Shown: positions 15,684 through 32,316 of the stretch, one piece after another
How positions within the stretch are numbered: the stretch's first letter is position 1
How the letters are laid out: each line of letters starts with the position of its first letter
Virus record (IMG/VR): IMGVR_UViG_3300035034_002581
Strand: one strand, 5' to 3'
DNA: 64,000 nucleotides
DNA from: a virus
Program-made: the position numbers and the translations under genes
Notes under the pieces: generated by a model
Told to the model about the DNA's origin: nothing
Database searches by the model: none
What the model saw: only the letters and a program-made list of their open reading frames with translations

Positions 15684-15886
15684 TGTGCTTCTTCCTTTAC
15701 GCGACTTAAGAGAGTCACTTTGTACAAATATCTCTTGTATACACTTCCGTCAATCAAGATATCGTAGTAGATCATTCCAGCTTCGTCCTTGTATCGGGCG
15801 GTAATAAGACCGATGACGACTTGGTTCGATGTCACAAAGTAGAACCTTACGATATCGTTTGCTTGAAGGTCAACAGACAATTTCAT
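15680..15886 (-). CDS. small KOW/SH3-like protein (GDLV family)
   Basis: ...NDIVRFYFVTSNQVVIGLITARY. It is a paralog of its neighbours. Confidence 0.3.
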   Translation of the reverse strand: MKLSVDLQANDIVRFYFVTSNQVVIGLITARYKDEAGMIYYDILIDGSVYKRYLYKVTLLSRVKEEAQ

Positions 15887-16707
15887 GACGTTTGGAGTTC
15901 ACTAAATTTGATAAAGTTGATGCCTCTGTCGTTAAATGCCAAGATTTCTTCAACACGCTTAGCTTTCTTCTGTCCATTTGAATAGAGTTTACCAAGTGTA
16001 ACAAAATCAAATCCATGCGCCTTCAGATTTCTTTCGTTAGCGTCTGTCTTGAGACAAGAGATAATGACAGGGTTTTTTCTCTTTCCAAGTGCTTTCACTA
16101 GCTTAATATCATCTGTGATGGTCCACCCAGCTGGAGTATAGCTTGTAAACGTAGATGAGTACGGTGCATCTGCATAAATAACAGCATCTTCGTCTTCAAG
16201 ATCAGGTAGCGAATGTTCCCAGGAAAGGCATGTGGCTGCTTTTATTTTATCAGATGGGGTAATTAACAGCTTATCAAATGGAAACCTCCTAGGGCCTCCA
16301 TAAGGCACGTTACAGCCATTCTTGCTGGCCCGCCATAACCCATTAAATCCTGCGTAAAGAATAGCTAAGAAGGCAACTGGATCTTGCTCGCCAGTGCTCT
16401 TAAAGTTATTGCGAACCTCGTAGAATTTAGCCCGTGGATCAGGATCACCTTGAATGCTATCGAATAGATCACGAACTTCAGTCAAGTAATCGTTCTTACG
16501 AAGTGCAAGCTCTTTGTACATGTTAATCAAAGGCAAACAGGTATCGTTTAAGTATGCCTCCTTTGCATGCGTTAGCGAGACAGATGCACTTCCTGCAAAA
16601 GGCTCGTAGCACACGTCCATACTTCTGAAAACTGGTAGAAGCCACTTTTTAGATCCTGTCCATTTAATTGTCATTCTTTTTCTCACTTGGATTGTACAAC
16701 TGTTCAT
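15883..16707 (-). CDS. DNA N6-adenine methyltransferase (Dam-like, alpha group)
   Basis: Motif I is EPFAGSASVS (compare Dam EPFVGAGSV). Motif IV is IYADAPYSS, a DAPY variant of DPPY. Confidence 0.7.
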   Translation of the reverse strand: MNSCTIQVRKRMTIKWTGSKKWLLPVFRSMDVCYEPFAGSASVSLTHAKEAYLNDTCLPLINMYKELALRKNDYLTEVRDLFDSIQGDPDPRAKFYEVRNNFKSTGEQDPVAFLAILYAGFNGLWRASKNGCNVPYGGPRRFPFDKLLITPSDKIKAATCLSWEHSLPDLEDEDAVIYADAPYSSTFTSYTPAGWTITDDIKLVKALGKRKNPVIISCLKTDANERNLKAHGFDFVTLGKLYSNGQKKAKRVEEILAFNDRGINFIKFSELQTS

Positions 16708-16989: not shown

Positions 16990-18003
16990 CTACTTTAAAA
17001 TGTGTGTGTGTGATTCTCTAAGTGAATTTCCAGAGACTCTTAATAACACACATTTAGCTTGAAACTCTTCGATACTAATACATCCTGAGTAGCTTAGTGC
17101 ACTTTTAACTCTGGATTCTACTTCTCCCAGGATAGTTTCTACGCTGTCAGTTTTAAATGGGATTCTTGTTGTAATACCTTCAAGAGACGCAGCTTTACCT
17201 CTCCAATCAATTTGCGCATCTTTACTGGCCATACCTCGATAAACCTTCATGAGCTGGCCTTTATACATGTAAGCCTCACCAGGAGTAGATGCTGTCCCAG
17301 CTAACATACTACCCAGCATAACAGCATCAGCACCTGCTGCAAGGGCCTTAGAGATGTCTCCTGCGTTTCTTAGGCCGCCGTCGGCAATCAAAGCTGCCGG
17401 TCTTGTCGAGGTTGCACACTCAAGAATTGAAGACAATGTTGGCATTCCGTGTCCTGTCTGGAGTCGAGTACTACAAATACTTCCACCGCCGATTCCGACT
17501 CGAATACTGTTTGCGCCCCAGTCTGACAAGTCGTCGAAACCTTTCTTCGTGGCTACATTGCCTGCCATTATGTGGATGCCCAATCCGTACTGCTTGCGTA
17601 GTTCATAGAGCGCTTTTTTCATCATTTCTGTGTGTCCATGGGCTACATCAATACAAAACTTGTTAGCACCCTCCTGGATATGTGCATCGACGCGCTCGAT
17701 ATAGTCACCTGATACGCCGATCGCTATGACTTTGTTGTGTGCTTTCTTTGCTATTTCGACCTGATCTTCGATAGAGTTATATCTGTGAATGACGCCGATT
17801 CCGCCGGACCTTGTCATATCATTACACATAACATCTTCAGTTACAGTGTCCATCGGACTTGAAATAATAGGCAGTGAAAGATCAAGACCGCCACAGAATG
17901 AATATAAGCTAATCAAGCTCCTAGATGGGATCTTAGAGTATTGCGGTCGAATGAGAATGTCGTCGAAACAGAGCAACTCCGGTTTTTGTAGGTCAAGTCT
18001 CAT
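16990..18003 (-). CDS. guaC: GMP reductase-like (IMPDH/GuaC family, no CBS domain)
   Basis: 337 aa. FDDILIRPQYS matches the GuaC N-terminus FKDVLIRPKRS. GIGGGSICSTR matches the catalytic-Cys loop GIGPGS(V/I)C(T/I)T. Confidence 0.6.
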   Translation of the reverse strand: MRLDLQKPELLCFDDILIRPQYSKIPSRSLISLYSFCGGLDLSLPIISSPMDTVTEDVMCNDMTRSGGIGVIHRYNSIEDQVEIAKKAHNKVIAIGVSGDYIERVDAHIQEGANKFCIDVAHGHTEMMKKALYELRKQYGLGIHIMAGNVATKKGFDDLSDWGANSIRVGIGGGSICSTRLQTGHGMPTLSSILECATSTRPAALIADGGLRNAGDISKALAAGADAVMLGSMLAGTASTPGEAYMYKGQLMKVYRGMASKDAQIDWRGKAASLEGITTRIPFKTDSVETILGEVESRVKSALSYSGCISIEEFQAKCVLLRVSGNSLRESHTHILK

Positions 18004-19110
18004 TTAAAAAGTACCTCGTTGTGTCCATGACGGACTGTCTAGAAACTCTATGTGATCAATAGGGAACGCTGCATTTTTTCGAATAGCACTTGTGATTGAC
18101 TGCAACATGGCTTCTTCTGAATCATATCGGCGCAACACACCGTTATAAAAGAATGGCCACTCTTCTTTGTGCCCCATAGTGGCGTTTAAATAGCTCAATT
18201 TTACTGCTGTCGAAAATACGTCAAGCTTATTGATGTAGATTTTGTTTGATCCAGTAATATTGATTGCTTTGATAAGTTTGTCAACATTGAGAAAGTTTGT
18301 ATCTCGTGCCCTTCCAGTTGTTACGCCAATCTCTTTACCTGCTACGGCGAGATCTTTTTTAAAACGAGCGTGATTCTCCGGCTCTGGATCGAAACTAGGA
18401 TCGATTCCGACTCTTGTGTCATACATCTTAGCAACACCGTAGACATCACGTATTGAATAGTGTGAGAAGCCTAAAGATAGTGCACCAGCGGGTGTTGTAT
18501 TTGAAGATGTAACATATGGATAGTTTCCGTAGTCTACATCAAGCCAACATCCTTGTGCTCCTTCACATAACACCTTCTTTCCGAGTACTTCATCCCAAAT
18601 CATGTGTGCAGGGAGGTAGTCTTTTGCAAGTTTTCCTGTTCGTCCATATTTGTCCCTATACGCTGGTGCAATACCGTTACCTGTAGTACCCAATCTTTCC
18701 TTGAACTCTCCAGAATCTTCTCTAATGTGATCATTCGTAACGATATGAGCACGAGGAGATACTTTGACAAGTGAACCGTTATGTCCTGCCTTCTCTAATA
18801 GGGAGATCTCTCGCATCAGTTTCTCAACATTAACAACACAACCAGGACCAATCACACTCTTGATGCCGAAGAGTACACCGCAAGGGACAATATGTGTTTT
18901 GTATACCTTTTCTTCTCCATCTTTTCCGGGCACATGAATTGTGTGCCCTGCATTTGAACCTCCGCTCCATCTCGCGACCATGTCATAGTCACCTGTTGAT
19001 GCTAGTCCTGCTGCTATCTTTCCTTTTCCTTCATCGCCCCAAGCTAAACCTGTAACGATGTCAACGATCAAACCCATGTCGTTTTGTCCCTTTGAATTAT
19101 TTCTAAACAA
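18004..19110 (-). CDS. purA: adenylosuccinate synthetase homolog (short, archaeal-type; PurA or PurZ-like)
   Basis: WGDEGKGKI is the P-loop and SGGSNAGHT holds the catalytic His, as in PurA. It is only 368 aa, against ~430 aa for bacterial PurA. The coding sequence directly abuts the guaC-like gene. Confidence 0.7.
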   Translation of the reverse strand: MFRNNSKGQNDMGLIVDIVTGLAWGDEGKGKIAAGLASTGDYDMVARWSGGSNAGHTIHVPGKDGEEKVYKTHIVPCGVLFGIKSVIGPGCVVNVEKLMREISLLEKAGHNGSLVKVSPRAHIVTNDHIREDSGEFKERLGTTGNGIAPAYRDKYGRTGKLAKDYLPAHMIWDEVLGKKVLCEGAQGCWLDVDYGNYPYVTSSNTTPAGALSLGFSHYSIRDVYGVAKMYDTRVGIDPSFDPEPENHARFKKDLAVAGKEIGVTTGRARDTNFLNVDKLIKAINITGSNKIYINKLDVFSTAVKLSYLNATMGHKEEWPFFYNGVLRRYDSEEAMLQSITSAIRKNAAFPIDHIEFLDSPSWTQRGTF

Positions 19111-19292
19111 TCTGAATCACGATATAGTAAACCAAGTGGTGTGTATATCTTGTAGCACAATCCTTCGGAATAAGGTGCTGGAATTTGGGCATCAGTTATG
19201 ATGCCTACTGTTTTGTTCTTGAGCGAACCAAAATGTCCCGTTGCTTTCCAGACACGAATTTCTACCAGGTCACCACGACCTACATTACTCAT
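19068..19292 (-). CDS. small KOW-like protein (GDLV family)
   Basis: GDLVEIRVWKATGHFGSLKNKTVGIITD fits the KOW pattern Gd.V.v...G.f.G..G.V. Confidence 0.35.
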   Translation of the reverse strand: MSNVGRGDLVEIRVWKATGHFGSLKNKTVGIITDAQIPAPYSEGLCYKIYTPLGLLYRDSDCLEIIQRDKTTWV

Positions 19293-19522
19293 ACTACTAC
19301 CTGCTTCATTGATTGTATTAGCTTAGCATTTATGTCTGTTCGCTTTATAATACAACCATCAGGTGCTAACATTGTATAGACAACACAAGATGATCTAGTG
19401 TTAAATGAGATGACTAGACCGACTGTGTCAACTTTAAAGTGTTCACTGTAACCTTTAGCATAGACAGTTATCTTAACTAAGTCACCGGAGTTAAGGCAGT
19501 TTCGTTTCATGCAATCCCTCAA
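19289..19522 (-). CDS. small KOW-like protein (GDLV family)
   Basis: SGDLVKITVYAKGYSEHFKVDTVGLV. Confidence 0.35.
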   Translation of the reverse strand: MRDCMKRNCLNSGDLVKITVYAKGYSEHFKVDTVGLVISFNTRSSCVVYTMLAPDGCIIKRTDINAKLIQSMKQVVV

Positions 19523-19739
19523 CTAATTCATAGTCCTGAAAAAATCTGGTGTGTATCGTGAGTGTTTCTGAATCAATGACTTTTGTTGTTGTGATGTATG
19601 TAATTTCTGAGCATCTCACATTCATCACGATTCCGAGGCTTCGTGTGGCCCTATGTCGGACTAGATCACCTCGCATGTATCTATACATCAGTCTAGATCC
19701 AGTGGACGAATCTTCCATGCTGTGGTCGATGGACCCCAC
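19491..19739 (-). CDS. small KOW-like protein (GDLV family)
   Basis: MRGDLVRHRATRSLGIVMNV. The start is probably an internal Met. Confidence 0.3.
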   Translation of the reverse strand: MGSIDHSMEDSSTGSRLMYRYMRGDLVRHRATRSLGIVMNVRCSEITYITTTKVIDSETLTIHTRFFQDYELVEGLHETKLP

Positions 19740-22700
19740 TTGTCGTCGCCCTTAGCTTGACACATCCAAACACTGAACCTTGGGATCTCTTCTTTGAGAT
19801 TACCCCAAACCTTGAGCCAAACAAGATTGTTGTCGCCATCTTGTGCTCTGATTCTGTGATACGTCTTGCCGTTCTTGGTCTTTTTAACTTGAACTTCTCG
19901 ACATAGGAACCATGCAACTGCTTCGACGCCACCTGGGATTTCTGTCAACGGAGGAATATCCTTCTCTTCAAGCCTTTCCAAAAACCCTTCTGGGAACAAC
20001 TGTTCATTACTAATGGCACTTCTAAGGTCAGCGTTGAATGTGATCTTCTCGGTTCGAGTCCAATCTTCATCGAACTCGACTGACTTGATTAGATCTGGGA
20101 GAATGTCTGGGACTGCCTTACCGTTCTTGATATCACGCTTAATACCCGCAGCAGACTTACCCTTCTTTCCTTTTCGCAATACGTTCCAATTGTCCATCAA
20201 GAGCGCATGTAGTTGTCGGTGATTTTCAAAAGTACCGTCTTTGAATTCAGCAAGTGAGTTGAACGCTTCGATTTTGCAGAGTGAATCAAATGATCCCTTG
20301 TTCATCTTAGAGTGATACCACTTGCCTTGGTCATCAAACAATAGATCTTCAAGACTCTTGAATGGACGAGATTCTAGGATCTCAGCAGCTGCAGTCTTAC
20401 CAACTCTCTTGATAGAAGAAAGCGGAGGTACGAAGGCATTGATTTCGTATGAGTACTCCCATTCAAATCCAGAGTGATTAATGTCGATCGGAGCAATTTC
20501 ATAGCCGAGACGCTTAAGTTCAACAATTGCCTTTGATAGACCTGTCGGACTGTTGTTCTCAGACTGCAAGATTGTTGCAATCCACTGCTCTGGATGATAA
20601 GTGAAGAGCCACGCGCCGAAGTAAGAGTCAATTGCATATGCAATGGCGTGAGACTTGTTAAATCCATAGACGCTGAAGAATTCGATCTTTTTCCAGAGTT
20701 CTTCTGAGATATGCTCTGGAATGTCATGGAGTTTCTTGGCGCCCTTGACAAACTGGTCTCTAGCAGCAGCACGCTCATCGCCCTTCTTACCCATTGTATC
20801 AAGTGACTTCTTAACAAGAGTCTTACGAAGTTTGTCAGATTCCGCAGGTGAGAATCCAGCTAGCTCTTGTGCAAGTAGCATGAACTGCTCTTGGAAGGAG
20901 ATATATCCGAGGGTCGGACTTAGGATTTTCTCAATAATTGGGTGATCATAAGTAATTGCAACACCTTCTAGCAGCTGTTTTTTTGTTGCAACATAGTCGG
21001 TGTGCACGTTAGCCTGGAGTGGACCGGGTCGGTAGATTGCAGTAATTGCGCCTAGCTCGGTTGCATCTGTTGGCTTGACCTGTCGACAGAATTCACGAGC
21101 ACCTTCAGCAGTAAATTGGAAGAGGCCTGGCGCAAAGTCTTGCTGATGATATGCTGTCTTGAAGACATGCAGATCATCGGGATCGTTTGTTCTGCAATTT
21201 AAGTGCTTGTCAAAGTAGGCTTTTACTTCATCAAACGTCGGCTTGGGATTACCTTCCTTGATTAAGATTCGACGAATACAGTTTCTAACGTCTTCCATGA
21301 GCGTCAACCCAAGGAAGTCAAACTTAATGAATCCGTTGTCTTCAAGGTTACGGAAGTTCATACCTTCTGTCCAAGGTGTTTGTAGTTCACCGCGAACAGA
21401 GATGATCGGCATCGTTCTTTCAAGCTGCTCAGGTGGAGCGATAATGACACCACCAGCGTGACGACCCAGACTCTTGTTCTGCATGAAAAGAGCAGCAATG
21501 TGTTGCTTAACCTCTGGGTACTCATCCATGAATGCACGGTACTTCTTAGAATACTTCATACAATCTGCGTGCTTGAGAACGAACACCGACTTCTCAGTGT
21601 TGGAGTCCTTAGCTTGAGGCATGACCTCTTCCTGTAGGCCACGAGTAAGATCAAAGACCTCAGAAGCAGGAATATCGTAGAATGAAGAAATGTCCTTTAG
21701 TAATGACTTGAGTTTCAAAGTATTGAAGTTAGACACAGGAATGACTGCGTCGTTGCCGTAAAGTTCACGTGCAGCGTTAATCAAGACGTCGCGGTCGCCA
21801 ACATCAGAGTCGATGTCAGGCCAAGAAGTACGGTGTCGACCAAGGAATCGCTCCCAAAGTAAACCGTATTTCAGTGGATCCACCTGTGTAACACCGAGAA
21901 GATAGTTGACAAGTGAACCAGCACCTGATCCTCGACCACATCCAAAGAGCGTTGATTTAGCAGCAAGGTTAAAGACCTGATACATGACCAAGAAATAGTT
22001 TTCAAACCCAAGGTGCTTGATGTCAGACAACTCATAGTGAGCGCGCTTGATATACTCTGCGTTTTTAGCAAAACCTTCCTTGATCAACCCTTCCTTAACG
22101 AGTTTTGCAAGCTGATTGAAGGCTGACTCTTCTTTGGTAGAAAAGTTAGGTAGCTTTGCTTCAGTGTCAATCCATGTGTCAGAGCACATATCCCAGCAAA
22201 TGTCGTGTGTTCGCTCAATTGAGTCACGAACAATTGCTTCGGTGCCTTCATAGAATGGGTACTTGTCTTTATGTGCAAGGTACTCATCCCACATCTGTTG
22301 TGCATTTTTAGGATAGAGTTCACACTTTAGATCTTCTTTCTTCGGAAGACCCTCGTCATCTTTTCGCTTCCAACCAAGGCGTCTATAGAGTTCTCGTGCT
22401 TGCCACAATTCAGGTGCTGGATAGTGAGAGTCAGCAGTGGCCACAAGTGGAATACTAGTCTTCTCAGCAAGCTTGATTAGTGCAGCATTTGTTAGATGCT
22501 GGGCTGGGAGGCTGTTGAACTGCATCTCGAGAAAGAAGTTTTCTTGACCAACAGCGTCGACAAATCGGTCTGTCATGTTTTCGAGGCGATTCATGACATT
22601 GACAGCAGCTTGGCCAGTTAGAAGATCAGGGTGAAGCTCATCGAACTTCTTATCAGGAAACTCCTTGTAGATCAAACCAGAAGCTGCGCCACCGACGCAT

Positions 22701-23254
22701 GCTGTACTTACGATAAGACCTTCGCTATGTTCTTTGAGCATGTCATAGTCAATACGAGGGAAGCGATAGAATCCATGCTTGAAAGACTTCTTGACGAGCC
22801 TGTAAATATTGTGAAGACCTTCTTGATTCTTGGCCAAGACAACTAGGTGATAGTATCGCTGCCAATCTGGCTTTCCGGACGATCTTGTCTCTTCCTCAGA
22901 CTCAATGACGTGTCCTTCCTCTTCCTCATTAGAAGTTTTCGCCTTTGCTGCAGCCTTTTGTGCTTTGTGAGCTTCATAATCTAATCGCCACTGTGTCAGA
23001 GAGGGGACAAAGTAAAACTCTACGCCATACAACTGACGGAACTTCTGACCTTTCTTTCTTCTCTTTTCATACTCTTTCCTTGCGTGAGCATGAGAGTTTG
23101 CATTTCCGTGATTTGTAATCGACCAAGCGTCCATTTCGTTGTTAAGAACGAATTCGACGTGATCTGATGGATATCCTAAACCATCGTATGTAGAGAATCC
23201 ATCGTGAGCGTGTAGACCGACGAATCGGTTAGGTGGTCGAATTAACTTTGACAT
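19688..23254 (-). CDS. dnaE: DNA polymerase III alpha subunit (DnaE-type replicative polymerase with N-terminal PHP domain)
   Basis: ~1190 aa. The N-terminal PHP motif RFVGLHAHDGFSTYDG matches E. coli RFVHLRVHSDYS. Downstream Pol III alpha core motifs follow. The start was moved to the second in-frame ATG (MSKLIRPP) because it is preceded by GCTAGGAGTATAATG, a perfect SD. Confidence 0.85.
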   Translation of the reverse strand: MSKLIRPPNRFVGLHAHDGFSTYDGLGYPSDHVEFVLNNEMDAWSITNHGNANSHAHARKEYEKRRKKGQKFRQLYGVEFYFVPSLTQWRLDYEAHKAQKAAAKAKTSNEEEEGHVIESEEETRSSGKPDWQRYYHLVVLAKNQEGLHNIYRLVKKSFKHGFYRFPRIDYDMLKEHSEGLIVSTACVGGAASGLIYKEFPDKKFDELHPDLLTGQAAVNVMNRLENMTDRFVDAVGQENFFLEMQFNSLPAQHLTNAALIKLAEKTSIPLVATADSHYPAPELWQARELYRRLGWKRKDDEGLPKKEDLKCELYPKNAQQMWDEYLAHKDKYPFYEGTEAIVRDSIERTHDICWDMCSDTWIDTEAKLPNFSTKEESAFNQLAKLVKEGLIKEGFAKNAEYIKRAHYELSDIKHLGFENYFLVMYQVFNLAAKSTLFGCGRGSGAGSLVNYLLGVTQVDPLKYGLLWERFLGRHRTSWPDIDSDVGDRDVLINAARELYGNDAVIPVSNFNTLKLKSLLKDISSFYDIPASEVFDLTRGLQEEVMPQAKDSNTEKSVFVLKHADCMKYSKKYRAFMDEYPEVKQHIAALFMQNKSLGRHAGGVIIAPPEQLERTMPIISVRGELQTPWTEGMNFRNLEDNGFIKFDFLGLTLMEDVRNCIRRILIKEGNPKPTFDEVKAYFDKHLNCRTNDPDDLHVFKTAYHQQDFAPGLFQFTAEGAREFCRQVKPTDATELGAITAIYRPGPLQANVHTDYVATKKQLLEGVAITYDHPIIEKILSPTLGYISFQEQFMLLAQELAGFSPAESDKLRKTLVKKSLDTMGKKGDERAAARDQFVKGAKKLHDIPEHISEELWKKIEFFSVYGFNKSHAIAYAIDSYFGAWLFTYHPEQWIATILQSENNSPTGLSKAIVELKRLGYEIAPIDINHSGFEWEYSYEINAFVPPLSSIKRVGKTAAAEILESRPFKSLEDLLFDDQGKWYHSKMNKGSFDSLCKIEAFNSLAEFKDGTFENHRQLHALLMDNWNVLRKGKKGKSAAGIKRDIKNGKAVPDILPDLIKSVEFDEDWTRTEKITFNADLRSAISNEQLFPEGFLERLEEKDIPPLTEIPGGVEAVAWFLCREVQVKKTKNGKTYHRIRAQDGDNNLVWLKVWGNLKEEIPRFSVWMCQAKGDDKWGPSTTAWKIRPLDLD
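23217..23250. repeat. 34-bp direct repeat copy 1 (covers dnaE codons 2-13)
   Basis: ccgacgaatcggttaggtggtcgaattaactttg is identical to the copy at 23799..23832. Confidence 0.8.
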
Positions 23255-23798
23255 TATACTCCTAGCTGTCATTACTCTAGCAGCTTTTAAGGACGGCCGA
23301 CTAGCTTATTTTTGTTCTTGTATATTGTACCATCAACTAGTACACAATTACACATTTTGTTTCCTCTTTGTAATCGAAAAGTATATACAAAGAAGAATGT
23401 TATTGAAGGCAGGCAGAACCTACGGAGAGGGTTACGACCCCTCTACCACTTTAGATCAACTCCCGTGGACGGCTATCCTCCGTCTTTGTATATCGGGCCA
23501 GCATTTAATGGTCTGCACGTTTAAAGTTGTCGCCCCCTTCTTCAGCTTTCATCATCTTACGTTATTAGATTACTTGCTTAGTGAAGCTGCCTGCTATCCT
23601 GATTGGGTGTTTCTCCTCAATAACAAAAATGATAATTTACTCTACTCATGTGACAGATTTGCTTTAGCTTTCTCAGCTCTCACTGCATCATTGAGAACTG
23701 CCAGCCTTCCTTCGCGACTTTTGTATGAATAAATTGCATCGTCTAACATCTTCTGTTCGACATGCGTTTTAAGGCCCTTACCTTCATTTGTTACCCAG

Positions 23799-23832
23799 CC
23801 GACGAATCGGTTAGGTGGTCGAATTAACTTTG
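23799..23832. repeat. 34-bp direct repeat copy 2 (~580 bp upstream of dnaE)
   Basis: Exact duplicate of the dnaE 5'-end sequence. It makes the 68/73-aa ORF 23642..23863 begin ...ITKLIRPPNRFVGW, mimicking the DnaE N-terminus. Confidence 0.8.
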
Positions 23833-24112
23833 TAATGGCGACCATAGTAAGTGTATTCGGCAATCCAAATATCTTCTTAAATTCTCGTCAGTAAAATAAG
23901 CTCTGGTACAGGAACAGACTCAAATATCTTGCTTACTTTTGAATTCGCAAAATAGCGGCAAGACAAAGCTAATGCTGTTAGTATGTATCCGAGCACTGCA
24001 ATGGTGACGGCGACACTATACACAATTGCACTTCAATTTATGTTCCTTTGAATGAGTTCGTTATACTATAACGTACAACAAAACTTTTTACAAGTCAAAG
24101 TTCTACACAGGA

Positions 24113-24340
24113 TTAGGCGTTGTATCCATCAGTAAATTCAGTAACAACATCAGATAGTATGTCAGTAGCATCTCTACCAGAGACACCTTCAGTTTTTTCT
24201 ACATCGACTAGAAATGCTTCAAGTGCTGTGTAAAGGCCAACTTCTTCTGCGATCTCATCGTACAATGGGTAAACGCCGTCTACTTCTGATATGACTTCTG
24301 CGATTAGGCCGCGAATTCTTTTTCTATTTAGTGTCTTCAT
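24113..24340 (-). CDS. shared-leader family member (paralog pair with the next gene)
   Basis: The internal Met start gives MKTLNRKRIRGLIAEVISEVDG, preceded by a cAGGAAAac RBS. YPLYDEIAEEVGLYTALEAFLVDVE is paralogous to the adjacent gene. Confidence 0.45.
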   Translation of the reverse strand: MKTLNRKRIRGLIAEVISEVDGVYPLYDEIAEEVGLYTALEAFLVDVEKTEGVSGRDATDILSDVVTEFTDGYNA

Positions 24341-24353
24341 GTTTTCCTGCTTA

Positions 24354-24605
24354 TTATCGTGCAAACGAAGGTTCAGAAAGGGACGATCTTAGCTTCTTTA
24401 TGTGTTCCATCATGAGATCTTCTAGTGCATCATATGCGTCTTCGTCAGTCGGGAATTTTTCCAATGTAATTGTCTCATCGACAAATCTTTCCATTGCGTC
24501 ATATAGCCCAACTTCTTGTGCAATCTCATCGTGTAGCGGGTAGGTGCTCTCTTTAAGAATGTTAGCTATTTCTTCTCGAATGAGCTTTTGAAACTTGGTT
24601 TTCAT
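24354..24605 (-). CDS. shared-leader family member (paralog)
   Basis: The internal Met start gives MKTKFQKLIREEIANILKES. YPLHDEIAQEVGLYDAMERFVDE matches the neighbour. Confidence 0.45.
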   Translation of the reverse strand: MKTKFQKLIREEIANILKESTYPLHDEIAQEVGLYDAMERFVDETITLEKFPTDEDAYDALEDLMMEHIKKLRSSLSEPSFAR

Positions 24606-24606
24606 C

Positions 24607-25011
24607 TTAGTCTTCCTCTTCATCAAATATGTCAACAAGGCTTGAAACACCAGTGTGAATTCCGTCTTCGTAGTCTTTCATTTTTTTAACTTTTTTCGGA
24701 CCCGCTTCTTCTTCTGCCATCTCTTGAGCTGCTCTAAGCTCTGCAGGTAGGTCTTTTACAGCGCCTTCGCCCATGAACCCTTTTGCAATCCAAGATCCGT
24801 CGGGCTTCAATATTAAGACTTCGTTTCCAAAAGCGCCTAAAGGATAAATTAAGACTTCGCCCTTATTTGATGTACTAACTGCCGTTTCACCTTGCTTGAT
24901 TCCAGCAGATAATTTTCGTGTGATAGACTGTGGTGAGTCTGACTGTCTTGCTACCAAATTGTCAAGTTCTTCTTTGATAAGCTTTCTAATTACTGACGTC
25001 GAGAGTTTCAT
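24607..25011 (-). CDS. shared-leader family member
   Basis: The N-terminus is MKLSTSVIRKLIKEELDNLVAR. The C-terminus is acidic (DIFDEEED). Confidence 0.45.
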   Translation of the reverse strand: MKLSTSVIRKLIKEELDNLVARQSDSPQSITRKLSAGIKQGETAVSTSNKGEVLIYPLGAFGNEVLILKPDGSWIAKGFMGEGAVKDLPAELRAAQEMAEEEAGPKKVKKMKDYEDGIHTGVSSLVDIFDEEED

Positions 25012-25065
25012 TTAAAAATGCTCCATACAATGTAATTATCACACGGAGCAGCTAAGTAACCTAAC

Positions 25066-26148
25066 TCAATAAAACTTGGTCAAGTCGATATTGAGTTCAT
25101 CAGCAGCTTCTAGATACTTAAGCGGATTGTAGTGTGATCCGCCACAAATTTTAGAGAGTATTGTCTCTACAACATCTTCAATACCTGATTCAAGATTAAC
25201 CGTTGGCGACCATCCAGAGGTCTTTCTGAAGCTTTTTGATGACAACCTATGGTTTCCAAGGTAGTCAGTTTTTGGATTCCATCTGACTATTTCTGACGGT
25301 ACTTTAAGCTGATCAATTATTTTGATAAATGGCGGCCAGTCTTTAAATGATACTGTGTGTGATCTCATACTGGCTGCTAATACTTGATCAACTGTGTCAA
25401 TAATCTCACCAGTAACTCTAGGATCTTCAGCGGCGACAATGAAATCTTGACCCCACAGATTTTGTTCAGCTGCCATTAACACAGCAGTACAATAATCCTT
25501 GACATGAAGATAGTCTTTGTACTTGGTTGGATCGAGAAACATATCGATTTCTTCTCTTCCTATCATTGCTCCGTAAATAGACTTGGCAATTAGAGAGTTC
25601 ATGTCGCCTTCGCCGCCATATGCAAAGAGAGGCCTGATGATGTTTGTTTTGCCTTTCGATTCTCTTACGATCATGTCACCTGTTTGTTTTAGCTGACCGT
25701 AGTAAGTTGTAGGCTTTACCGTGCTTTTCTCTGTGATGAGTGTGTGTTGGTAATTTGGAGTGTCATAGATTACTGTCGTTCCCATGTAGCTTACTAAGAT
25801 TCCTTCTGCTTCGCATGCTCTAACAATGTTGTAAGTTCCGTTCACGTTTGTAAGAGTTGCCTCAGCAGCAGACAGTGCAACGACGTCTGTACCTACAACT
25901 GCAGCATTGTGTATAACAAGATCAACCTCGAAATGTGTAAGTGCTTTTCTCCATTCCACGATTGTATTCTTGTGTACGCAAGGCTCCATAAACATAGAGG
26001 GCTGATGTGGTTCGCCTTTGACCCGCCAGATAAGATGTTTAGCAGCTTCTTCAGTACACAAAGAAACGAACTCATGGCCTCGTTTTTTGATTTCTTTAAT
26101 TAGTCCTTGAGCGATGAAACCTTTTTCACCAGTGATTGCAATTTTCAT
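25066..26148 (-). CDS. NAD(P)-dependent epimerase/dehydratase (SDR family)
   Basis: MKIAITGEKGFIAQGL is a Rossmann motif. YGQLK is the YxxxK motif. The length is 360 aa. Confidence 0.6.
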   Translation of the reverse strand: MKIAITGEKGFIAQGLIKEIKKRGHEFVSLCTEEAAKHLIWRVKGEPHQPSMFMEPCVHKNTIVEWRKALTHFEVDLVIHNAAVVGTDVVALSAAEATLTNVNGTYNIVRACEAEGILVSYMGTTVIYDTPNYQHTLITEKSTVKPTTYYGQLKQTGDMIVRESKGKTNIIRPLFAYGGEGDMNSLIAKSIYGAMIGREEIDMFLDPTKYKDYLHVKDYCTAVLMAAEQNLWGQDFIVAAEDPRVTGEIIDTVDQVLAASMRSHTVSFKDWPPFIKIIDQLKVPSEIVRWNPKTDYLGNHRLSSKSFRKTSGWSPTVNLESGIEDVVETILSKICGGSHYNPLKYLEAADELNIDLTKFY

Positions 26149-26156
26149 TTTTCCCT

Positions 26157-26318
26157 CTACTTAATGTTACAAGCTTGACACCAACAACCTGCTGGGTTGA
26201 CCATACATTCCGAAGGGTCCCAGTCTTTTCTTCTTCGCTTCTTCTTGCGTTTTTCCTTCAAAGGGCCCTTAGTAACCATGGGGGCGTTATTCAAAAGCGC
26301 GTCATTTTTGGTGTCCAT
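26157..26318 (-). CDS. small basic zinc-ribbon protein (below 60-aa cut-off)
   Basis: Manual translation gives MDTKNDALLNNAPMVTKGPLKEKRKKKRRRKDWDPSECMVNPAGCWCQACNIK, which has C...C and CxC..C motifs. The listed plus-strand ORF 26136..26333 is its antisense shadow. Confidence 0.3.
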   Translation of the reverse strand: MDTKNDALLNNAPMVTKGPLKEKRKKKRRRKDWDPSECMVNPAGCWCQACNIK

Positions 26319-26393
26319 TTATCTTTCCTCTAAACAAAGCAGGCTATCTCTAACTATTTGTCAAAGATAGCCCTTTTCATGTATGATCAAAGA

Positions 26394-26837
26394 TTACTCA
26401 ATGTTGCCTTCATACATCTCAACAGCAAGTGATCCATCTGCTAAAGAGCGCTTGATATAGGCATCAAGATCTTCAAGTGATGTACAGACTGTGACACCAG
26501 ATGCCGACAACATAAGGTTAAACTTAGCGCCTTCAGGTAAACCTGCACAGAAGTAAACGATTGGTCGATCTAGGCAATGGAAATACCCTGCCTCGAAGAT
26601 TGAACCCATGTCCTTGTTTCGAGTGTTGCAGATCATCCAGTCTGAATCTTGCATGCCCTTGATGTTGCCACTGAAGATCTTGTCTTGCAGCGAAAGGGAT
26701 GCATCAGCAGGTGCAACAGCTTCATCACGTGGCGAGAAGTAATTCAACCCATTGTCGTCAAGAACTTTCTTGATTGCCTCAAGCTCTTCGAGCCACTCTG
26801 GACTAAACCAACCGCTTGCTATGTAACACTTCTTCAT
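26394..26837 (-). CDS. nucleoside 2-deoxyribosyltransferase / dNMP N-glycosidase (Rcl/DNPH1)-family protein
   Basis: MKKCYIASGWFSPE corresponds to the family N-terminus (YxAGPxF). DMGSIFEAGYF matches the catalytic D-x-G-[ST]-x-F-E-x-G-Y motif. Confidence 0.6.
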   Translation of the reverse strand: MKKCYIASGWFSPEWLEELEAIKKVLDDNGLNYFSPRDEAVAPADASLSLQDKIFSGNIKGMQDSDWMICNTRNKDMGSIFEAGYFHCLDRPIVYFCAGLPEGAKFNLMLSASGVTVCTSLEDLDAYIKRSLADGSLAVEMYEGNIE

Positions 26838-26862
26838 TCGTATTCTCCCTTTATTGTATTTG

Positions 26863-27846
26863 TCATTCTACCCACCCAACGTCAGTTTTCCATGCAGAAT
26901 ATTCTTCTCGAATGTCTTTCACTTCCTTGTCATAACCTTCCATTAGTTGGTCGAATCTAAAGTTCTCGGGCTTACCAAGTTCTGGGTCTGTTCCGTTAAC
27001 TTCATTTCTGTAGCAGTTGTAGATGAAGTCTTCTGGGTGCCAGTCAAACTTATCGGAGTCGGCATCGGGCCAGTACAGATTCGTAGCCTTTCCAGTACGA
27101 GCTGTTGCAATGTAGTGGCGAGAAGCTGCATGCGGATTGATGCATGATGTAATCTCTGGGAACAACTTAGCGACAGCAATAAACATCTGGTATGCCATCA
27201 CATTGTCTGTTGTAGGCTGAATCTGCTTATCAAAACGCTGACGAAGGAAGTTGAGCATATCCTTTAGGTTGCATCGGGCGTAGTAGTGTGTCTCAATAGC
27301 TCTAGGAAGGATTGTCCTTGCATCCATGATTGAAATCTTACGAGAATCAATCATATCACAGTACAACTCCTTTGCATCTTCAACGTGCTTCTTCCAACGC
27401 TCGTAGAGTTCTGGACTGTTCTGGACAGGACCTGGAACTAGCGCATTGCTATGTGACTGCCAACGATCTCCAGTACACTGAGCGCTGAATGAGAACGTTC
27501 TGTGTCTGATGAGATGGGTGACTGTCTGTAGATCGATGCCTTCAATGCGGAAGGTAAAGTCCAAAGTCTCCATAACAGTCGGAAGTGCTTTGTAATTGAG
27601 AGCGAGTTCGAGTGCTTCATGTCCCTTCCATGCTGGGACATCGTCCGGGTTGTGCATTCCTGGTGCGTCTTCCCATGTAGCATTGATAAACTGATAGACC
27701 ATTCGCCTGACACGCTCAGGATCAGGATAGTCGAGCAAAACTACATTTAAAGAGTCAAGATCGTTCTTGAACTCAGTTGTTGGCTTTTCGTCAAAGCGAA
27801 TCGCCATGGGAAATTCTACGGGCTTTAATTTTTTGTCTTGTGGCAT
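26863..27846 (-). CDS. divergent ThyX-like (flavin-dependent thymidylate synthase family) paralog
   Basis: FTFRIEGIDLQTVTHLIRHRTFSFSAQCTGDRW matches the ThyX core (FxFxI...sRa...Ql.RHRxxSfsqxSxRY). A Cys replaces the signature Ser and TGDRW replaces SQRY. It is 327 aa against 229 aa for the canonical ThyX at 32317. Confidence 0.5.
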   Translation of the reverse strand: MPQDKKLKPVEFPMAIRFDEKPTTEFKNDLDSLNVVLLDYPDPERVRRMVYQFINATWEDAPGMHNPDDVPAWKGHEALELALNYKALPTVMETLDFTFRIEGIDLQTVTHLIRHRTFSFSAQCTGDRWQSHSNALVPGPVQNSPELYERWKKHVEDAKELYCDMIDSRKISIMDARTILPRAIETHYYARCNLKDMLNFLRQRFDKQIQPTTDNVMAYQMFIAVAKLFPEITSCINPHAASRHYIATARTGKATNLYWPDADSDKFDWHPEDFIYNCYRNEVNGTDPELGKPENFRFDQLMEGYDKEVKDIREEYSAWKTDVGWVE

Positions 27847-27899
27847 CCTTTATTCCTCACTAAATATTACAACTTTTGACGTAAATGTTCAAACTATTT

Positions 27900-28070
27900 C
27901 TAGACATCATTCCAGTAGCTATCTGGCTCAGATGACGCTTGCTTAATTACCCTTAGCACCTTCGACCATTCGAAGAATAAGTAGTGTTCACAATTGTCAG
28001 CACCATGAAGATGCTTCTCGGATTGCCACACATTTATGGATTCTAGAGAGTCAATAATATTTTTGGTCAT
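27900..28070 (-). CDS. small hypothetical ORF (56 aa)
   Basis: Manual translation gives MTKNIIDSLESINVWQSEKHLHGADNCEHYLFFEWSKVLRVIKQASSEPDSYWNDV. It lies in an otherwise ORF-poor ~600-bp region. Confidence 0.2.
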   Translation of the reverse strand: MTKNIIDSLESINVWQSEKHLHGADNCEHYLFFEWSKVLRVIKQASSEPDSYWNDV

Positions 28071-28457
28071 TAATCGCTCAAAGCTTTAAGTTGATATGAG
28101 ATGATCTCTGGCTTGCCCTTTAGTTTAAATCGGAACCCTGTGCTCTTTACAATGACAATATCATAAAAGTCAGCTGAGTCTAGTTGGTCTTGGACGAGAC
28201 TGCTATAATCACTGCTAGTGTCTACAAATGAACCTAGGAGTTCACTGCATCAACGCCATTATCGTCTGTCCATGTTGAAATAGCAAGAAATCTCTGTGAA
28301 TTAGACTCAACGAGCTTGATCATTTCTTTATGACGTCCGCTTAGAATTTTGTCAGTCAAGTAGCCGTTTTTATACAAGGCCCTGACAAGAGGTGATGTAA
28401 ATTCTAAGACGAAGTCAATTGTTTTTTATATCTTTTTCTTTGTCGCTTACACATAGT

Positions 28458-29378
28458 TTAGTCCTTCTTTGTGAGTCTTTTAACAAAATTGTACAACCCA
28501 TCCGCTGTATCGTACATTGTCACATTTTCAACATTTTCTAGATCAGCATTAACTGATGTTCTGGGTGATAGTGTATGTACTCCGTGCTTTGCGTATTCTG
28601 TTGCATGCTTTGGTGAATCATCAATAGCACAAACAACCTTTTCGCTCTTGTAGTAATCAGTTCTTGCTAGCCACAAATATTTCTCAGGTGAGAAACTAAT
28701 TCGATGACATTTGATACCACTCTTTTCAAGCCAGGCGTAAGTGTCGTATTTGCATACAAGGAGATCGGCTGGTCGCGCTGTCAATAGATGGATCCAGTAT
28801 CCTTCGTCGTAGAGTTTGTTTATCGTTTCTACGATGCTAATGTTTGTTCTCATTGATTTGAGTCGTCTAGCCTCAATGAACTTCATGTACATTTCTTCTG
28901 TGATTGAGTAGTAAGCAGTTGAATCTTCATCAGGAACGAAGTCAGTATTTGCCTTAACCCATCGTGTGCATTCGTCTTTAAAGGGCGTCAAAACGTCATC
29001 AACATCAACGATGATAACGGGCTGCCCTTCCCACTTGACCTGCTCTTTATTAAAGCGCGTGTTTAGATGCAGATCACGTACACTGAAGGCGTCTTCAAAG
29101 TCATCGTGAGTAATCCCCCACGTGTTTAAGATAGCTAGAAGATACCTGAAGGCGTCGACAGATTCGTGTAAGATTTTGCTAAGCTCTGGACTTTCATCTT
29201 TTGCACGGTGGTGACGATAATTGACGCCATCTAAGATATCGCCAACTTCCTTTTGTAAAGAAGCAGAGAACTGCAACGTAAGTTTCTCTCTATCTTCTTG
29301 AGTTAGATTCTCGTGATCAATAAAGTTCTCGGAAAATCGCTTTTGCTTTAGTAGCATTTCTTTAAAAGTATCTTTCAT
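28458..29378 (-). CDS. MazG-like NTP pyrophosphohydrolase domain fused to HAD-superfamily phosphatase (5'-nucleotidase-like)
   Basis: The N-terminal ~110 aa parallel the standalone MazG-like ORF at 29422 (EVGDILDGV...ILHESVDAFRYLLAIL versus EEVFEALNHL...FLEEWVDAMNYFFSVL). The C-terminal half has PVIIVDVDDVLTP, HAD motif I (DxDx[TV]). Confidence 0.5.
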   Translation of the reverse strand: MKDTFKEMLLKQKRFSENFIDHENLTQEDREKLTLQFSASLQKEVGDILDGVNYRHHRAKDESPELSKILHESVDAFRYLLAILNTWGITHDDFEDAFSVRDLHLNTRFNKEQVKWEGQPVIIVDVDDVLTPFKDECTRWVKANTDFVPDEDSTAYYSITEEMYMKFIEARRLKSMRTNISIVETINKLYDEGYWIHLLTARPADLLVCKYDTYAWLEKSGIKCHRISFSPEKYLWLARTDYYKSEKVVCAIDDSPKHATEYAKHGVHTLSPRTSVNADLENVENVTMYDTADGLYNFVKRLTKKD

Positions 29379-29421
29379 GTAATCCTCTAGTAATTATTAC
29401 ACATTACTAGAGGATGTTCAA

Positions 29422-29838
29422 TTAATAGTCACTTCTAAGTCGCTCATGGATAACTCGATCCTTTTCTACATAGGACTCATATATTTCATGAGGTGTGAAT
29501 CCTGCAAGAATAAGCACAGAGAAGAAGTAATTCATAGCATCTACCCATTCTTCTAGAAACTTGTCACGATCAAAGTCAGGCATTTCTGTCTTGCGATGAG
29601 GTTTCCAGTTCTTTAGATGATTAAGTGCTTCAAAGACCTCTTCTACGCCACGTAGAGAGACGTCTCTTAAGTTCCTCTGTGACTCTTTTGACCTTAAGTC
29701 CAAAGGCCATTCAGACTGTGCTCCGGGTCGATTCCTACTTAAAGCATGCATAAACTCTTCACGAAGTCTAAACATCTCTTCAAACCTGTCAGGGACAGGA
29801 GGCACCGGCATTGGCGCATCTTCATCAAAGCGATCCAT
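29422..29838 (-). CDS. MazG-like all-alpha NTP pyrophosphohydrolase
   Basis: RGVEEVFEALNHL matches ExxExxEA. DKFLEEWVDAMNYF matches the EExxD(x)L second MazG motif. Confidence 0.5.
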   Translation of the reverse strand: MDRFDEDAPMPVPPVPDRFEEMFRLREEFMHALSRNRPGAQSEWPLDLRSKESQRNLRDVSLRGVEEVFEALNHLKNWKPHRKTEMPDFDRDKFLEEWVDAMNYFFSVLILAGFTPHEIYESYVEKDRVIHERLRSDY

Positions 29839-30080
29839 TATTCACTCTCGTTGTCTTCTGATAGCATCTTTGTCTGGTGGTCTTCGACTTCTTGCATCAT
29901 AGAGTTAATTTGCTTTTCAAAAAGCTCCCTATAATCTGCAGTAAGAGCAAGCTTACCATCTTCTGTCGGTTCAACTTCGATCATTCGAATATGATCAATG
30001 ATGTCTGTTCCCGACAAGATCGCGAGTTGCAATGTGTCTCTAAGTTGCCCAATTAGTTCGTCTGCGAAATGATACTTCAT
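29838..30080 (-). CDS. hypothetical protein
   Basis: 80-aa ORF. Its start overlaps the MazG-like stop in an ATGA coupling. Confidence 0.3.
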   Translation of the reverse strand: MKYHFADELIGQLRDTLQLAILSGTDIIDHIRMIEVEPTEDGKLALTADYRELFEKQINSMMQEVEDHQTKMLSEDNESE

Positions 30081-30123
30081 ACTATCTCCTATTTGACTAT
30101 CTTAATTCTTCTGTCTTATTTGT

Positions 30124-30954: not shown

Positions 30955-30956
30955 TA

Positions 30957-31223
30957 CTACTCCATCTCGTCGTCAAAGCAGTCCATTGTATTCATTGTAA
31001 AAATCGGACCTAGAGAAATTGAATGAATAGGTCCATCGTACCAATCTTCGTGATAGCCGAATGTCCAGTACTTACGTTTTACAAGCAGATGCAGTGTCAT
31101 GTTTTGCTTGTACTTAAAAAAGGGAACTTTAACATTGAGAAAACTAAAGGCTATAAATCCTGCTGTTTGATCAATTATGTGAATCCCTATTTCTGCTTTT
31201 AGCACTTTAAAGGACAGCAGCAT
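30957..31223 (-). CDS. hypothetical protein
   Basis: 88-aa ORF. Confidence 0.25.
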   Translation of the reverse strand: MLLSFKVLKAEIGIHIIDQTAGFIAFSFLNVKVPFFKYKQNMTLHLLVKRKYWTFGYHEDWYDGPIHSISLGPIFTMNTMDCFDDEME

Positions 31224-31837: not shown

Positions 31838-31838
31838 G

Positions 31839-32311: not shown

Positions 32312-32316
32312 TATTG

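Follow-up and report, generated by a model that had tools for sequence, protein, structure and literature searches.

The dnaE gene examined here is preceded by a second, perfect 34-bp copy of its own 5' end, and this arrangement is probably a lineage-specific recombination scar left by one non-homologous join in the hypervariable region just upstream of dnaE. The locus lies in a window of 64,000 nucleotides, the whole stretch of DNA analysed, from what we take to be an uncultured large marine myovirus. A recombination scar was among the origins proposed in the initial annotation of this DNA, and it is the option that the evidence favours: an ectopic copy of the dnaE start, a putative fragment of another gene (X') fused to it, and relatives without the arrangement. 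The features are listed in Table 1.

Table 1 Features at the dnaE 5' end and upstream of it, in window positions
Feature	Position	Strand	Description
dnaE	19688-23254	-	DNA polymerase III alpha-like replicase, 1188 aa; true start ATG 23254-23252
Native 34-nt copy	23217-23250	-	dnaE nt +5 to +38, codons 2-13, S-KLIRPPNRFVG
Noncoding stretch	23255-23641	-	387 nt; expanded dnaE upstream region
dnaE Shine-Dalgarno AGGAG	23259-23263	-	4 nt before ATG; read from sequence
dnaE promoter-like element, extended -10	23324-23353	-	GTGTAATTG-N-TGGTACAAT
GC-richer hairpin core	23405-23600		196 nt; GC 0.485, about 95th percentile
Chimeric ORFan	23642-23845	-	67 aa from ATG 23845, or 73 aa from TTG 23863
X'	23645-23798	-	51 coding-like codons (WVTNEGKGLK...ANLSHE)
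Ectopic 34-nt dnaE 5' copy	23799-23832	-	in-frame fusion to X'
48-codon ORF	23877-24023	-	between last credible gene and chimeric ORF
Possible second-promoter upstream-half relic	24015-24047	-	AGGAACATAAATTGAAGTGCAATTGTGTATAGT; resembles 23337-23364

A perfect direct repeat and the native dnaE start

The sequence CCGACGAATCGGTTAGGTGGTCGAATTAACTTTG occurs exactly twice in the window and the two copies differ at no position (34/34), as the initial annotation had described. None of 100 shuffled sequences matched it (chance expectation 0), and it outranks by length every other perfect direct repeat in the 64 kb. The copies are spaced by 582 nt, which equals 194 codons, and all genes around the locus lie on the minus strand. 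The arrangement is real and no assembly artefact, as supported by two other public assemblies. In a JGI scaffold from another sample (L020), each contig half spans one complete copy and continues on both sides of it, which covers the junctions in-R-X' and UTR-R-dnaE (R, the 34-bp repeat). A Logan contig, 99.99% identical, ends exactly 30 nt into the upstream copy (k-1, k=31), the behaviour expected of a real repeat in a de Bruijn graph. Such a break exactly at the repeat would also be seen if strain variants had been chimerically joined at a common 34-mer, but the independent JGI halves traverse both copies with both flanks and gene calls of the 67-aa chimeric ORF come from 3 contigs, one of them of 179.6 kb, which makes an artefact extremely improbable. 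In practice, the repeat splits k=31 assemblies at its edge and gives a misleading small gene call in public databases.

The dnaE product, which is called identically on a 179.6-kb public contig, carries the Pfam families PHP (residues 14-245), DNA_pol3_alpha, finger and HHH_6, and its N-terminus MSKLIRPPNRFVGLHAH agrees with MSKLIKPPNRFVGLHAH and MSKIIRPPRRFVGLHAH of relatives. In the closest relatives, at 69-71% identity, DnaE starts with MSK[LI]I[KR]PP.RFVGLHAH, encoded from ATG TCA AAR onwards; the context of the downstream copy, with its ribosome-binding site and ATG TCA AAG, is kept in L021 and L023. The AGGAG site is of a kind found in front of 34 of the 46 genes of the window. The MSK start of the relatives and the AGGAG site thus identify, by comparison, the downstream copy as the native dnaE start and the upstream copy as ectopic. 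The initial annotation was silent on which copy is the original, and it is the relatives that point to the downstream one.

It had also been suggested that the region might contain the dnaE promoter, and we indeed observed a promoter-like element upstream of the native start. Its pattern, GTGTAA(A)T followed after ~17 nt by TAnAAT, is conserved upstream of dnaE in 5/8 relatives, at the orthologous position in L021, L023, L024, L005 and L007, and matches only once in the window (0.25 expected). A possible relic of the upstream half of a second such promoter precedes the ectopic copy. Its local alignment scores 25 vs 19.0±2.2 in shuffles, 6/300 of which equal it (p about 0.02), suggesting at most a marginal residual similarity to the dnaE promoter region. 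The 13-nt motif GTGYAATTGTGTA was considered as a recurring phage promoter and rejected, the bare 13-mer being at chance level and the full promoter pattern unique to dnaE; the motif survives only as a marginal relic. Another candidate, ATATACAAAGAAG as an operator or iteron, proved to be merely a two-copy inverted pair.

A chimeric ORF and a hairpin-rich spacer

The ectopic copy is embedded in an ORF that reads MVAIT, then the dnaE patch KLIRPPNRFVG, then X'. The initial annotation had noted a decoy ORF here (23642-23863), which lies on the minus strand and does read ...ITKLIRPPNRFVGW before diverging from DnaE. Neither of its candidate starts has a Shine-Dalgarno site. Among 5.8 billion proteins its sole match is itself (P0001, on 3 contigs), and word-indexed and exhaustive HMMER searches for homologues of this small ORF likewise gave only the small ORF itself; two further matches, to a tandem-repeat protein and to a multi-C-type-lectin, were rejected as artefacts because both proteins are highly repetitive. 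A tblastn search of the small ORF against phages gave no match, and Pfam and PHROGs found nothing in the small ORF, the 48-aa ORF or the plus-strand ORFs of the segment.

The X' part of the ORF has a codon-usage score of +0.337 per codon, which stands at the median of real genes (0.344±0.123) and is reached by only 0.8% of 239 spurious stop-free ORFs. It retains zero similarity to dnaE, to the rest of the window or to the relatives. Native codon usage together with the lack of a Shine-Dalgarno site and of any homologue fits a truncated gene fragment, and we interpret X' as the 3' remnant of an unknown gene X. The earlier statement that no convincing ORF lies between the copies needs to be divided: it holds for 23255-23641, but not for 23645-23798, whose 154 nt are in frame and coding-like. 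Further upstream, the 48-codon ORF has a codon score of about 0, equalled by 20% of spurious ORFs, and neither a Shine-Dalgarno site nor a family match; it is probably no gene.

Between the chimeric ORF and dnaE, all three frames of the 387-nt noncoding stretch score negative and contain many stops, and its last ~100 nt are, judged by sequence, the native promoter and 5' UTR. This is not the only sizeable noncoding region of the window, as had been thought, since at least one other is present (27847-28457, 611 bp). A noticeably higher GC had been ascribed to the whole segment between the copies; the segment has a GC of 0.409 vs a window mean of 0.415, and only the 196-nt core is richer. In the core, a long-range helix between GGCAGGCAG (23408-23416) and CTGCCTGC (23587-23594) encloses the hairpins AGAGGG/CCCTCT (23426-23444) and GACGG/CCGTC (23467-23485); the short hairpins named in the initial annotation (agaggg/ccctct, gacgg/ccgtc, ggcaggcag...) are all present. 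Folding of the core is weak and shows no strand preference (z = -1.98 on the minus strand, -2.41 on the plus strand). A scan of 22500-24600 with Rfam 15 (cmscan, E<=10) gave as its sole match a spurious lncRNA model (E=4) outside the segment, and the whole window gave nothing at the gathering threshold; the covariance-model check proposed earlier for introns and ncRNA families has thus come out negative. ARAGORN found no tRNA or tmRNA, and no GenBank phage was matched when the locus was searched by blastn. IMG/VR and GTDB genomes, scanned for the core with exact and structure-degenerate patterns, yielded 0 matches, and no part of the segment is copied elsewhere in the window.

Origin of the arrangement

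Of ~14 relatives, not one has its own dnaE 5' end twice; the gap between dnaE and its upstream gene in relatives is 0-81 nt. In the comparison proposed in the initial annotation, the 550-bp segment is absent from the relatives, which are at most 71% identical and differ in neighbouring genes too; apart from near-identical copies, no relative closer than 71% in DnaE was found, and neither an 'empty' ancestral state nor a full-length gene X was observed. Between the 134-aa gene and dnaE, the content of the present phage differs from that of L023, indicating that the region is hypervariable. A tandem segmental duplication of the dnaE 5' region would show similarity beyond the 34 nt. The downstream flanks of the two repeat units are unrelated (score 15 vs null 18), and their upstream flanks have a common match of ~35 nt that is marginal (p about 0.02). 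In about 120 DnaE homologues a variable leader of 2-10 residues precedes the conserved [LI]I[RK]PPxRF[VT]GLHxH, which makes MVAIT-KLIRPPNRFVG a plausible former DnaE start; it is separated from MS-K... by a 9-nt indel and one substitution.

We infer a single-join history with a donor and a recipient, and an absence of function. The join would have connected nt +38 of a dnaE 5' end to the interior of the unrelated gene X, upstream of an intact dnaE. It may have arisen by unequal crossover between co-replicating or co-infecting related genomes, by integration of a circularised fragment through short dnaE homology, which is topologically equivalent to such a crossover, or by a template switch in recombination-dependent replication, and all three routes would yield the same product. 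On the minus strand, this product would begin with a dead dnaE stub of 16 codons (MVAIT-KLIRPPNRFVG). The stub would run on in frame into the final 51 codons of X and so form a chimeric ORFan without a ribosome-binding site; the former downstream spacer of X (~290 nt, hairpin-rich) would follow, and after it dnaE itself, intact and with its native promoter, 5' UTR and ribosome-binding site. The phage encodes a RecA-family protein (39855-41153) and a gp32-like SSB (41269-42075), as well as FEN and DnaB-like proteins. In T4-type recombination systems, less than 50 bp of homology suffices, a figure that comes from those systems and not from the present phage, and repeat-flanked cassettes and mini-circles are made in hyperplastic regions (PMC2839356). 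The repeat itself is probably without function, and it would persist because recombination between the copies would leave an essential gene with no promoter, ribosome-binding site or start codon. That the copies are perfectly identical suggests either a recent event or short-tract gene conversion by the phage RecA/gp32 that keeps them alike.

Several observations sit less easily with a recombination scar. Identity at 34/34 positions implies that the parental dnaE 5' ends were near-identical and had unrelated leaders and 5' UTRs; otherwise gene conversion is needed as a second process. On its left side the repeat stops 4 nt past the native ATG and not at a gene border, so that a further indel and a substitution, or else a second junction, have to be assumed. 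The in-frame fusion and native codon usage would equally fit a translated, selected small protein. The hairpin-rich core, for its part, may conceivably have a function.

The ectopic copy covers exactly the dnaE translation-initiation region, in the same frame and perfectly conserved, two samples keep the arrangement, and the RNA between the copies has a somewhat more stable fold than shuffles (z about -2). These features would suit a cis-regulatory unit in which the upstream ORF, sharing the first codons of dnaE, or the ectopic copy, acting as an RNA decoy, together with a structured leader of ~290 nt, tunes dnaE transcription or translation, possibly by titrating a repressor or sRNA at the initiation region, by translational coupling or by attenuation. 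We nevertheless consider such a unit unlikely. Since the structured core is located upstream of the native promoter, neither it nor the ectopic copy would be part of the promoter-proximal dnaE mRNA; the upstream ORF lacks a Shine-Dalgarno site, the opposite strand folds equally well, and nothing comparable is present in any of the ~14 relatives. No sequence complementary to the repeat was found in the segment, the best duplex (-19.8 kcal/mol) not exceeding that of shuffled probes (-21±2.8 kcal/mol). Leader-peptide and attenuator systems have a translatable upstream ORF with initiation signals and mutually exclusive pairings at the initiation region; here both candidate starts lack a Shine-Dalgarno site and complementarity to the repeat does not exceed chance. 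The same weak folding on both strands, and the absence of any Rfam match at E<=10, of a terminator on the minus strand and of a homologue in which covariation could be sought, make it distinctly unlikely that the core (23405-23600) represents a separate small gene for a structured RNA, belonging to a new family, unrelated to the repeat and merely located in the expanded spacer, even though its local GC of 0.485 stands out within AT-rich intergenic DNA, a long-range helix closes over three hairpins and a weak promoter-like site (23656-23629) lies just upstream. The sole observed sequence variant falls in an unpaired bulge. The structured or regulatory RNA proposed in the initial annotation is therefore not borne out, given a z-score of about -2 on both strands, no homologue and nothing complementary to the repeat.

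Perfect direct repeats that bound a discrete segment absent from relatives have the geometry of Campbell-type integration, with an identical core at both ends (34/34) as in att duplications, and mini-circles between short repeats are documented in T4-type phages (PMC2839356). It is nevertheless improbable that the segment is a non-autonomous 582-bp integrative cassette with a 34-bp att-like core, inserted at the dnaE 5' end by a site-specific recombinase acting in trans and bringing a replacement dnaE start, or a cassette that excises as a mini-circle. What would be the replacement start, with the ~100 nt that precede it, is not cargo but the promoter and start native to dnaE and conserved in its family, and the ectopic copy lies in frame within coding-like sequence and not at the edge of a discrete element. 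The 582 bp encode no recombinase, and no integrase, transposase or endonuclease is among the best 25 of 42 Pfam families of the 56 window ORFs, about 115 kb of the genome lying outside the window. The segment was not found elsewhere in the window, in IMG/VR or in GTDB genomes, and no collapsed MVAIT-DnaE variant is on record in the 100%-identity protein cluster. The att-like insertion of the initial annotation keeps a low probability. A more far-reaching reading, which we regard as quite improbable, is that the 582-bp unit is a functional cassette reversibly excised and re-inserted as a mini-circle by RecA/gp32 acting on the 34-bp repeats, or that the ectopic copy is an RNA or DNA decoy. If so, the cassette would toggle dnaE between two leader/promoter configurations, MS-DnaE made from the conserved promoter and MVAIT-DnaE made from upstream signals, or the decoy would protect or titrate something that targets the dnaE initiation region; in both cases phage replicase control would take a new form, and no measurement here favours one or the other. 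An excisable cassette would yield a circle or tandem junction TATAATGT-R-CTGGGTAAC and a collapsed junction CCATTA-R-TCTACACG.

Phage DNA polymerase genes are classic intron hosts, and a hairpin-rich segment at the 5' end of such a gene recalls a group I/II intron or homing-endonuclease element that splits dnaE and brings along a duplicate of its target. This reading, also raised initially, is effectively refuted and has next to no probability left: no group I/II model matches the locus at E<=10 or the window at the gathering threshold, neither GUGYG...AY nor an ORF for an endonuclease or RT is present, and dnaE is a complete gene that has a promoter, ribosome-binding site and ATG of its own, as in relatives without the segment. 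If splicing took place within the direct repeat, the 5' exon and the intron would also have to end in the same base, which conflicts with the group I U/G rule. A DGR-type TR/VR pair was likewise rejected: the repeat is perfect, without A-specific mismatches, and lies at the 5' end, and no RT is among the families listed.

Relation to known systems and implications

A close parallel to a recombination scar of this kind is provided by phage mosaic junctions (Hendrix-type; relaxed phage recombinases, PMC3945230), in which a novel joint at an arbitrary position leaves a gene fragment in a variable region beside a conserved core gene, and survival depends on retention of the intact essential gene. 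Here, by contrast, the joint would lie inside the 5' end of the essential gene and would have duplicated that end, leaving a 34-bp perfect direct repeat that is unusually clean and a chimeric ORF in frame, and the parental forms are not observed. In T4-type phages, PeSL (promoter-early stem-loop) cassettes and mini-circles (Arbiol et al. 2010, PMC2839356; PMC4122927) also occur in large myoviruses with RecA/UvsX-like and gp32-like proteins, place an ORFan between short direct repeats in a hyperplastic region and have the Campbell-type geometry predicted for mini-circle integration; however, the repeat described here is dnaE coding sequence and not a promoter-terminator motif, it is present just twice and not as a dispersed family, and the flanked ORF has no expression signals of its own. 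Integrative elements that target gene ends and bring a replacement copy, such as prophages that target tRNA genes, likewise leave gene-end direct repeats around inserted DNA and keep the gene intact, whereas at this locus no recombinase was found, the 'replacement' end is native with a family-conserved promoter, and the element, at only 582 bp, shows no recognisable arm sites. Self-splicing introns in phage replication genes, and likewise free-standing homing endonuclease genes, resemble this locus in that extra structured DNA accompanies a phage polymerase gene; here there is no ribozyme core and no endonuclease, and the extra DNA lies upstream of a complete, uninterrupted gene.

Taken together, the locus would represent a clean, datable case of DNA gain by a phage beside an essential gene. 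One aberrant join would have duplicated 34 nt of dnaE and created a chimeric ORFan with native codon usage, and the gap in front of dnaE would have grown from 0-81 nt to several hundred nt. A recombination scar of this kind would illustrate one route by which ORFans and long 'noncoding' spacers may originate in large marine myoviruses.

The repeat and the native dnaE start

Exactly two copies of the 34-mer CCGACGAATCGGTTAGGTGGTCGAATTAACTTTG are present in the window, and they form the longest perfect direct repeat of the 64 kb; a match was found in 0 of 100 dinucleotide-preserving shuffles. On the minus strand, which carries nearly all genes here, the 34-mer reads CAAAGTTAATTCGACCACCTAACCGATTCGTCGG, and both copies share one reading frame at a spacing of 582 nt (194 codons). 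The repeat described in the initial annotation is therefore real, and other assemblies back the arrangement. L017, a Logan contig (SRR6185438), shows 99.99% identity to window 23803-34148 and ends exactly 30 nt inside the upstream copy (k-1 for a k=31 de Bruijn graph), indicating that the graph of an independent assembly branches at the repeat. L020, a 1066-bp JGI scaffold from another sample, spans 22806-23861, interrupted at ~23325 by a scaffolding gap of 10 N; either half traverses one full copy plus both flanks, and beyond the gap its sole difference from the window is one C-to-T in a predicted bulge. Three public contigs have a call for the 67-aa chimeric ORF that includes the upstream copy (P0001), and the largest of them (179,559 bp) also carries an identical 1188-aa DnaE call with an MSKL start. 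Taken together, the L017 break, the L020 read-through and these calls make an assembly artefact very unlikely as the source of the arrangement. Public assemblies break up at this locus, as at the L017 end, and the DnaE call of a 99.8-kb JGI contig (P0002) is cut short at residue 41. Contig breaks and a misleading gene call, the "hypothetical protein" P0001, are thus effects of the repeat.

DnaE has Pfam PHP (residues 14-245), pol3_alpha, finger and HHH_6 matches. In this uncultured lineage its identity to every GenBank phage stays below 30%, and the nearest relatives found were P0003 (loci L021/L022, 71%) and P0004 (locus L023, 69%), whose N-termini, MSKLIKPPNRFVGLHAH and MSKIIRPPRRFVGLHAH, use codons ATG TCA AAR. 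Across ~120 homologues a variable 2-10-residue leader precedes a conserved [LI]I[RK]PPxRF[VT]GLHxH. A promoter-like GTGTAA(A)T..~17 nt..TAnAAT immediately follows the preceding gene, 35-72 nt 5' of the ATG, in 5 of 8 relatives, and has a single match in the window, consistent with the earlier suggestion that the region holds the predicted dnaE promoter. The relatives' DnaE starts and this element identify the downstream copy and the ~100 nt preceding it as native dnaE and the upstream copy as ectopic.

Upstream of dnaE, the motif ATATACAAAGA[A/C]G occurs as an inverted pair 85 nt apart, and the related ATATACAAGAAC overlaps the -10 element; the pair could be an operator, but the motif has only two close copies. 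In a clade of 56% identity (L005, L006, L007 and L015), a 263-aa J-domain-like protein with an HPD motif (...LTHPDKL...) adjoins dnaE upstream, and dnaE begins just 5-6 nt past a -10-like element, so its mRNA may be nearly leaderless.

Features of the dnaE region and of other parts of the window
Feature	Position	Strand	Description
Downstream copy	23217-23250	-	AGGAGtataATGT[repeat]TCTACACGCT, giving MSKLIRPPNRFVGLHAHDG
Upstream copy	23799-23832	-	cttactATGGTCGCCATTA[repeat]CTGGGTAAC, giving MVAITKLIRPPNRFVGWVTNEGK
X'	23645-23797	-	51 unique codons after ectopic copy; +0.337 per codon
dnaE promoter-like element	23353-23324	-	GTGTAATTG...TGGTACAAT
Inverted pair	23383-23395 / 23481-23493	+ / -	
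PurA-family gene	18004-19077	-	357 aa
PurA-family neighbours	16990-18003, 15883-16707	-	
GDLV ORFs	19068-19739	-	three, tandem
ThyX genes	26863-27846, 32320-33006	-	327 and 229 aa
Gap before thyX	27847-28457		611 bp, GC 0.378
21-nt unit	31292-31333		within 126-aa ORF 31210-31587
47-nt direct repeat	56372-56418 / 56741-56787		within ORF 56152-56862

The segment between the copies

Scored by codon-usage log-odds, with 35 long window genes as the training set, the segment showed an unbroken coding signal in the dnaE frame from ~23870 to 23645, followed from 23641 to 23255 by negative scores and numerous stops in all frames. The score of X' matches that of real genes (0.344±0.123); among 239 spurious stop-free ORFs of comparable length, just 0.8% attained it. 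The earlier view that the segment has no convincing ORF thus holds for 23641-23255 but not for the coding-like X'. Neither candidate start of the chimeric ORF has a Shine-Dalgarno site (present in 34 of 46 genes). Among 5.8 billion clustered proteins it matched only itself; HMMER, run exhaustively on 1.84 billion representatives, returned itself and two further matches, which were dismissed as repeat-protein artefacts. No match was found in Pfam, PHROGs or six-frame GenBank phages, and no counterpart in relatives or elsewhere in the window. Coding-like codons without a Shine-Dalgarno site or homologue fit the 3' remnant of a genuine gene, deprived of its start and joined to a dnaE stub.

The initial annotation had also offered an intron or homing element, a structured RNA and an att-type insertion. 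Folding z-scores were -2.1 for the 387-nt noncoding stretch and, for its 233-nt core, -1.98 on the coding and -2.41 on the opposite strand, a weak signal without strand specificity. With no Rfam match even at E<=10, the structured-RNA and intron or homing readings find no support. An att-type insertion is not supported either. No tRNA or tmRNA genes were found, nor a further copy of the hairpin core in the rest of the window, IMG/VR or GTDB genomes. The segment contains no complementarity to the repeat beyond chance, which removes attenuator-type models. Its GC (0.409) is not raised over the window mean (0.415) as had been proposed, except in a 196-nt core (0.485). Of the readings offered, that of a recombination scar stands as the probable one, with a lineage-specific ectopic dnaE 5' copy joined to the gene-fragment-like X'.

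Relatives and other features of the window

The spacing before dnaE is 0-81 nt in eight relatives, against 387 nt here when measured to the chimeric ORF stop and ~860 nt when measured to the last credible gene (24113). The proposed comparison with relatives thus finds the segment absent, although neighbouring gene content differs too: in L023 a homologue of the 134-aa window gene (24607-25011) precedes one unrelated 92-aa gene and then dnaE, so the interval is hypervariable. None of ~14 relatives having upstream sequence duplicates the 5' end of its dnaE, and a degenerate IMG/VR scan for the peptide motif found two contigs with one copy apiece. The duplication is lineage-specific.

Directly downstream of dnaE lie three small paralogous ORFs with a GDLV motif; similar MKPGDLV ORFs lie directly upstream of dnaE in L001, a 40%-identity relative (5321-5931), suggesting a dnaE-linked family of variable position. 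Past them is a short PurA-family enzyme below curated cut-offs (adenylosuccinate synthase, 233 vs 402 bits; PurZ, 106 vs 300 bits), behind which lie a GMP-reductase/IMPDH-like gene and a Dam-family methyltransferase; the enzyme may act in the AMP pathway or on a modified purine. Two ThyX (Thy1) genes within 6 kb, with nucleoside 2-deoxyribosyltransferase, dCMP deaminase, thymidine kinase and RNR, form a dense nucleotide-metabolism island. The gap between a 306-aa gene and thyX has no ORF of at least 80 aa and no gene call in L017; contrary to the earlier statement, the dnaE region is therefore not the sole sizeable noncoding region. A 47-nt repeat (89% identical, spacing 369 nt or 123 codons) looks like an internal domain duplication of a structural-region protein, and a 21-nt unit occurs in two tandem copies (95% identical).

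Origin of the arrangement

The window encodes a RecA-family recombinase (39855-41153), gp32-like SSB, FEN and DnaB-like helicase, together with sheath and T4-type baseplate proteins, a gene content that marks the source as a large myovirus that brings its own machinery for recombination. T4-type machinery has a homology requirement of <50 bp and generates repeat-flanked ORFan cassettes and mini-circles in hyperplastic regions (PMC2839356). The most economical history would be a single non-homologous join of nt +38 of one dnaE 5' end to the interior of a gene X, which would have sat upstream of an intact dnaE in a sister or closely related genome; integration of a circularised fragment via dnaE homology would lead to the same outcome. 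The left unit would fit a former dnaE 5' module, given its leader MVAIT, plausible for DnaE against ~120 homologues, and, at 24047-24015, what may be a remnant of the promoter's upstream half (marginal, p about 0.02). Perfect copy identity suggests that the event was recent or that gene conversion keeps the copies alike. Collapse between the repeats would remove the dnaE promoter, ribosome-binding site and ATG, so selection probably maintains the scar. The arrangement is a new instance, in an uncultured lineage, of a known phenomenon, the phage mosaic junction with partial gene duplication.
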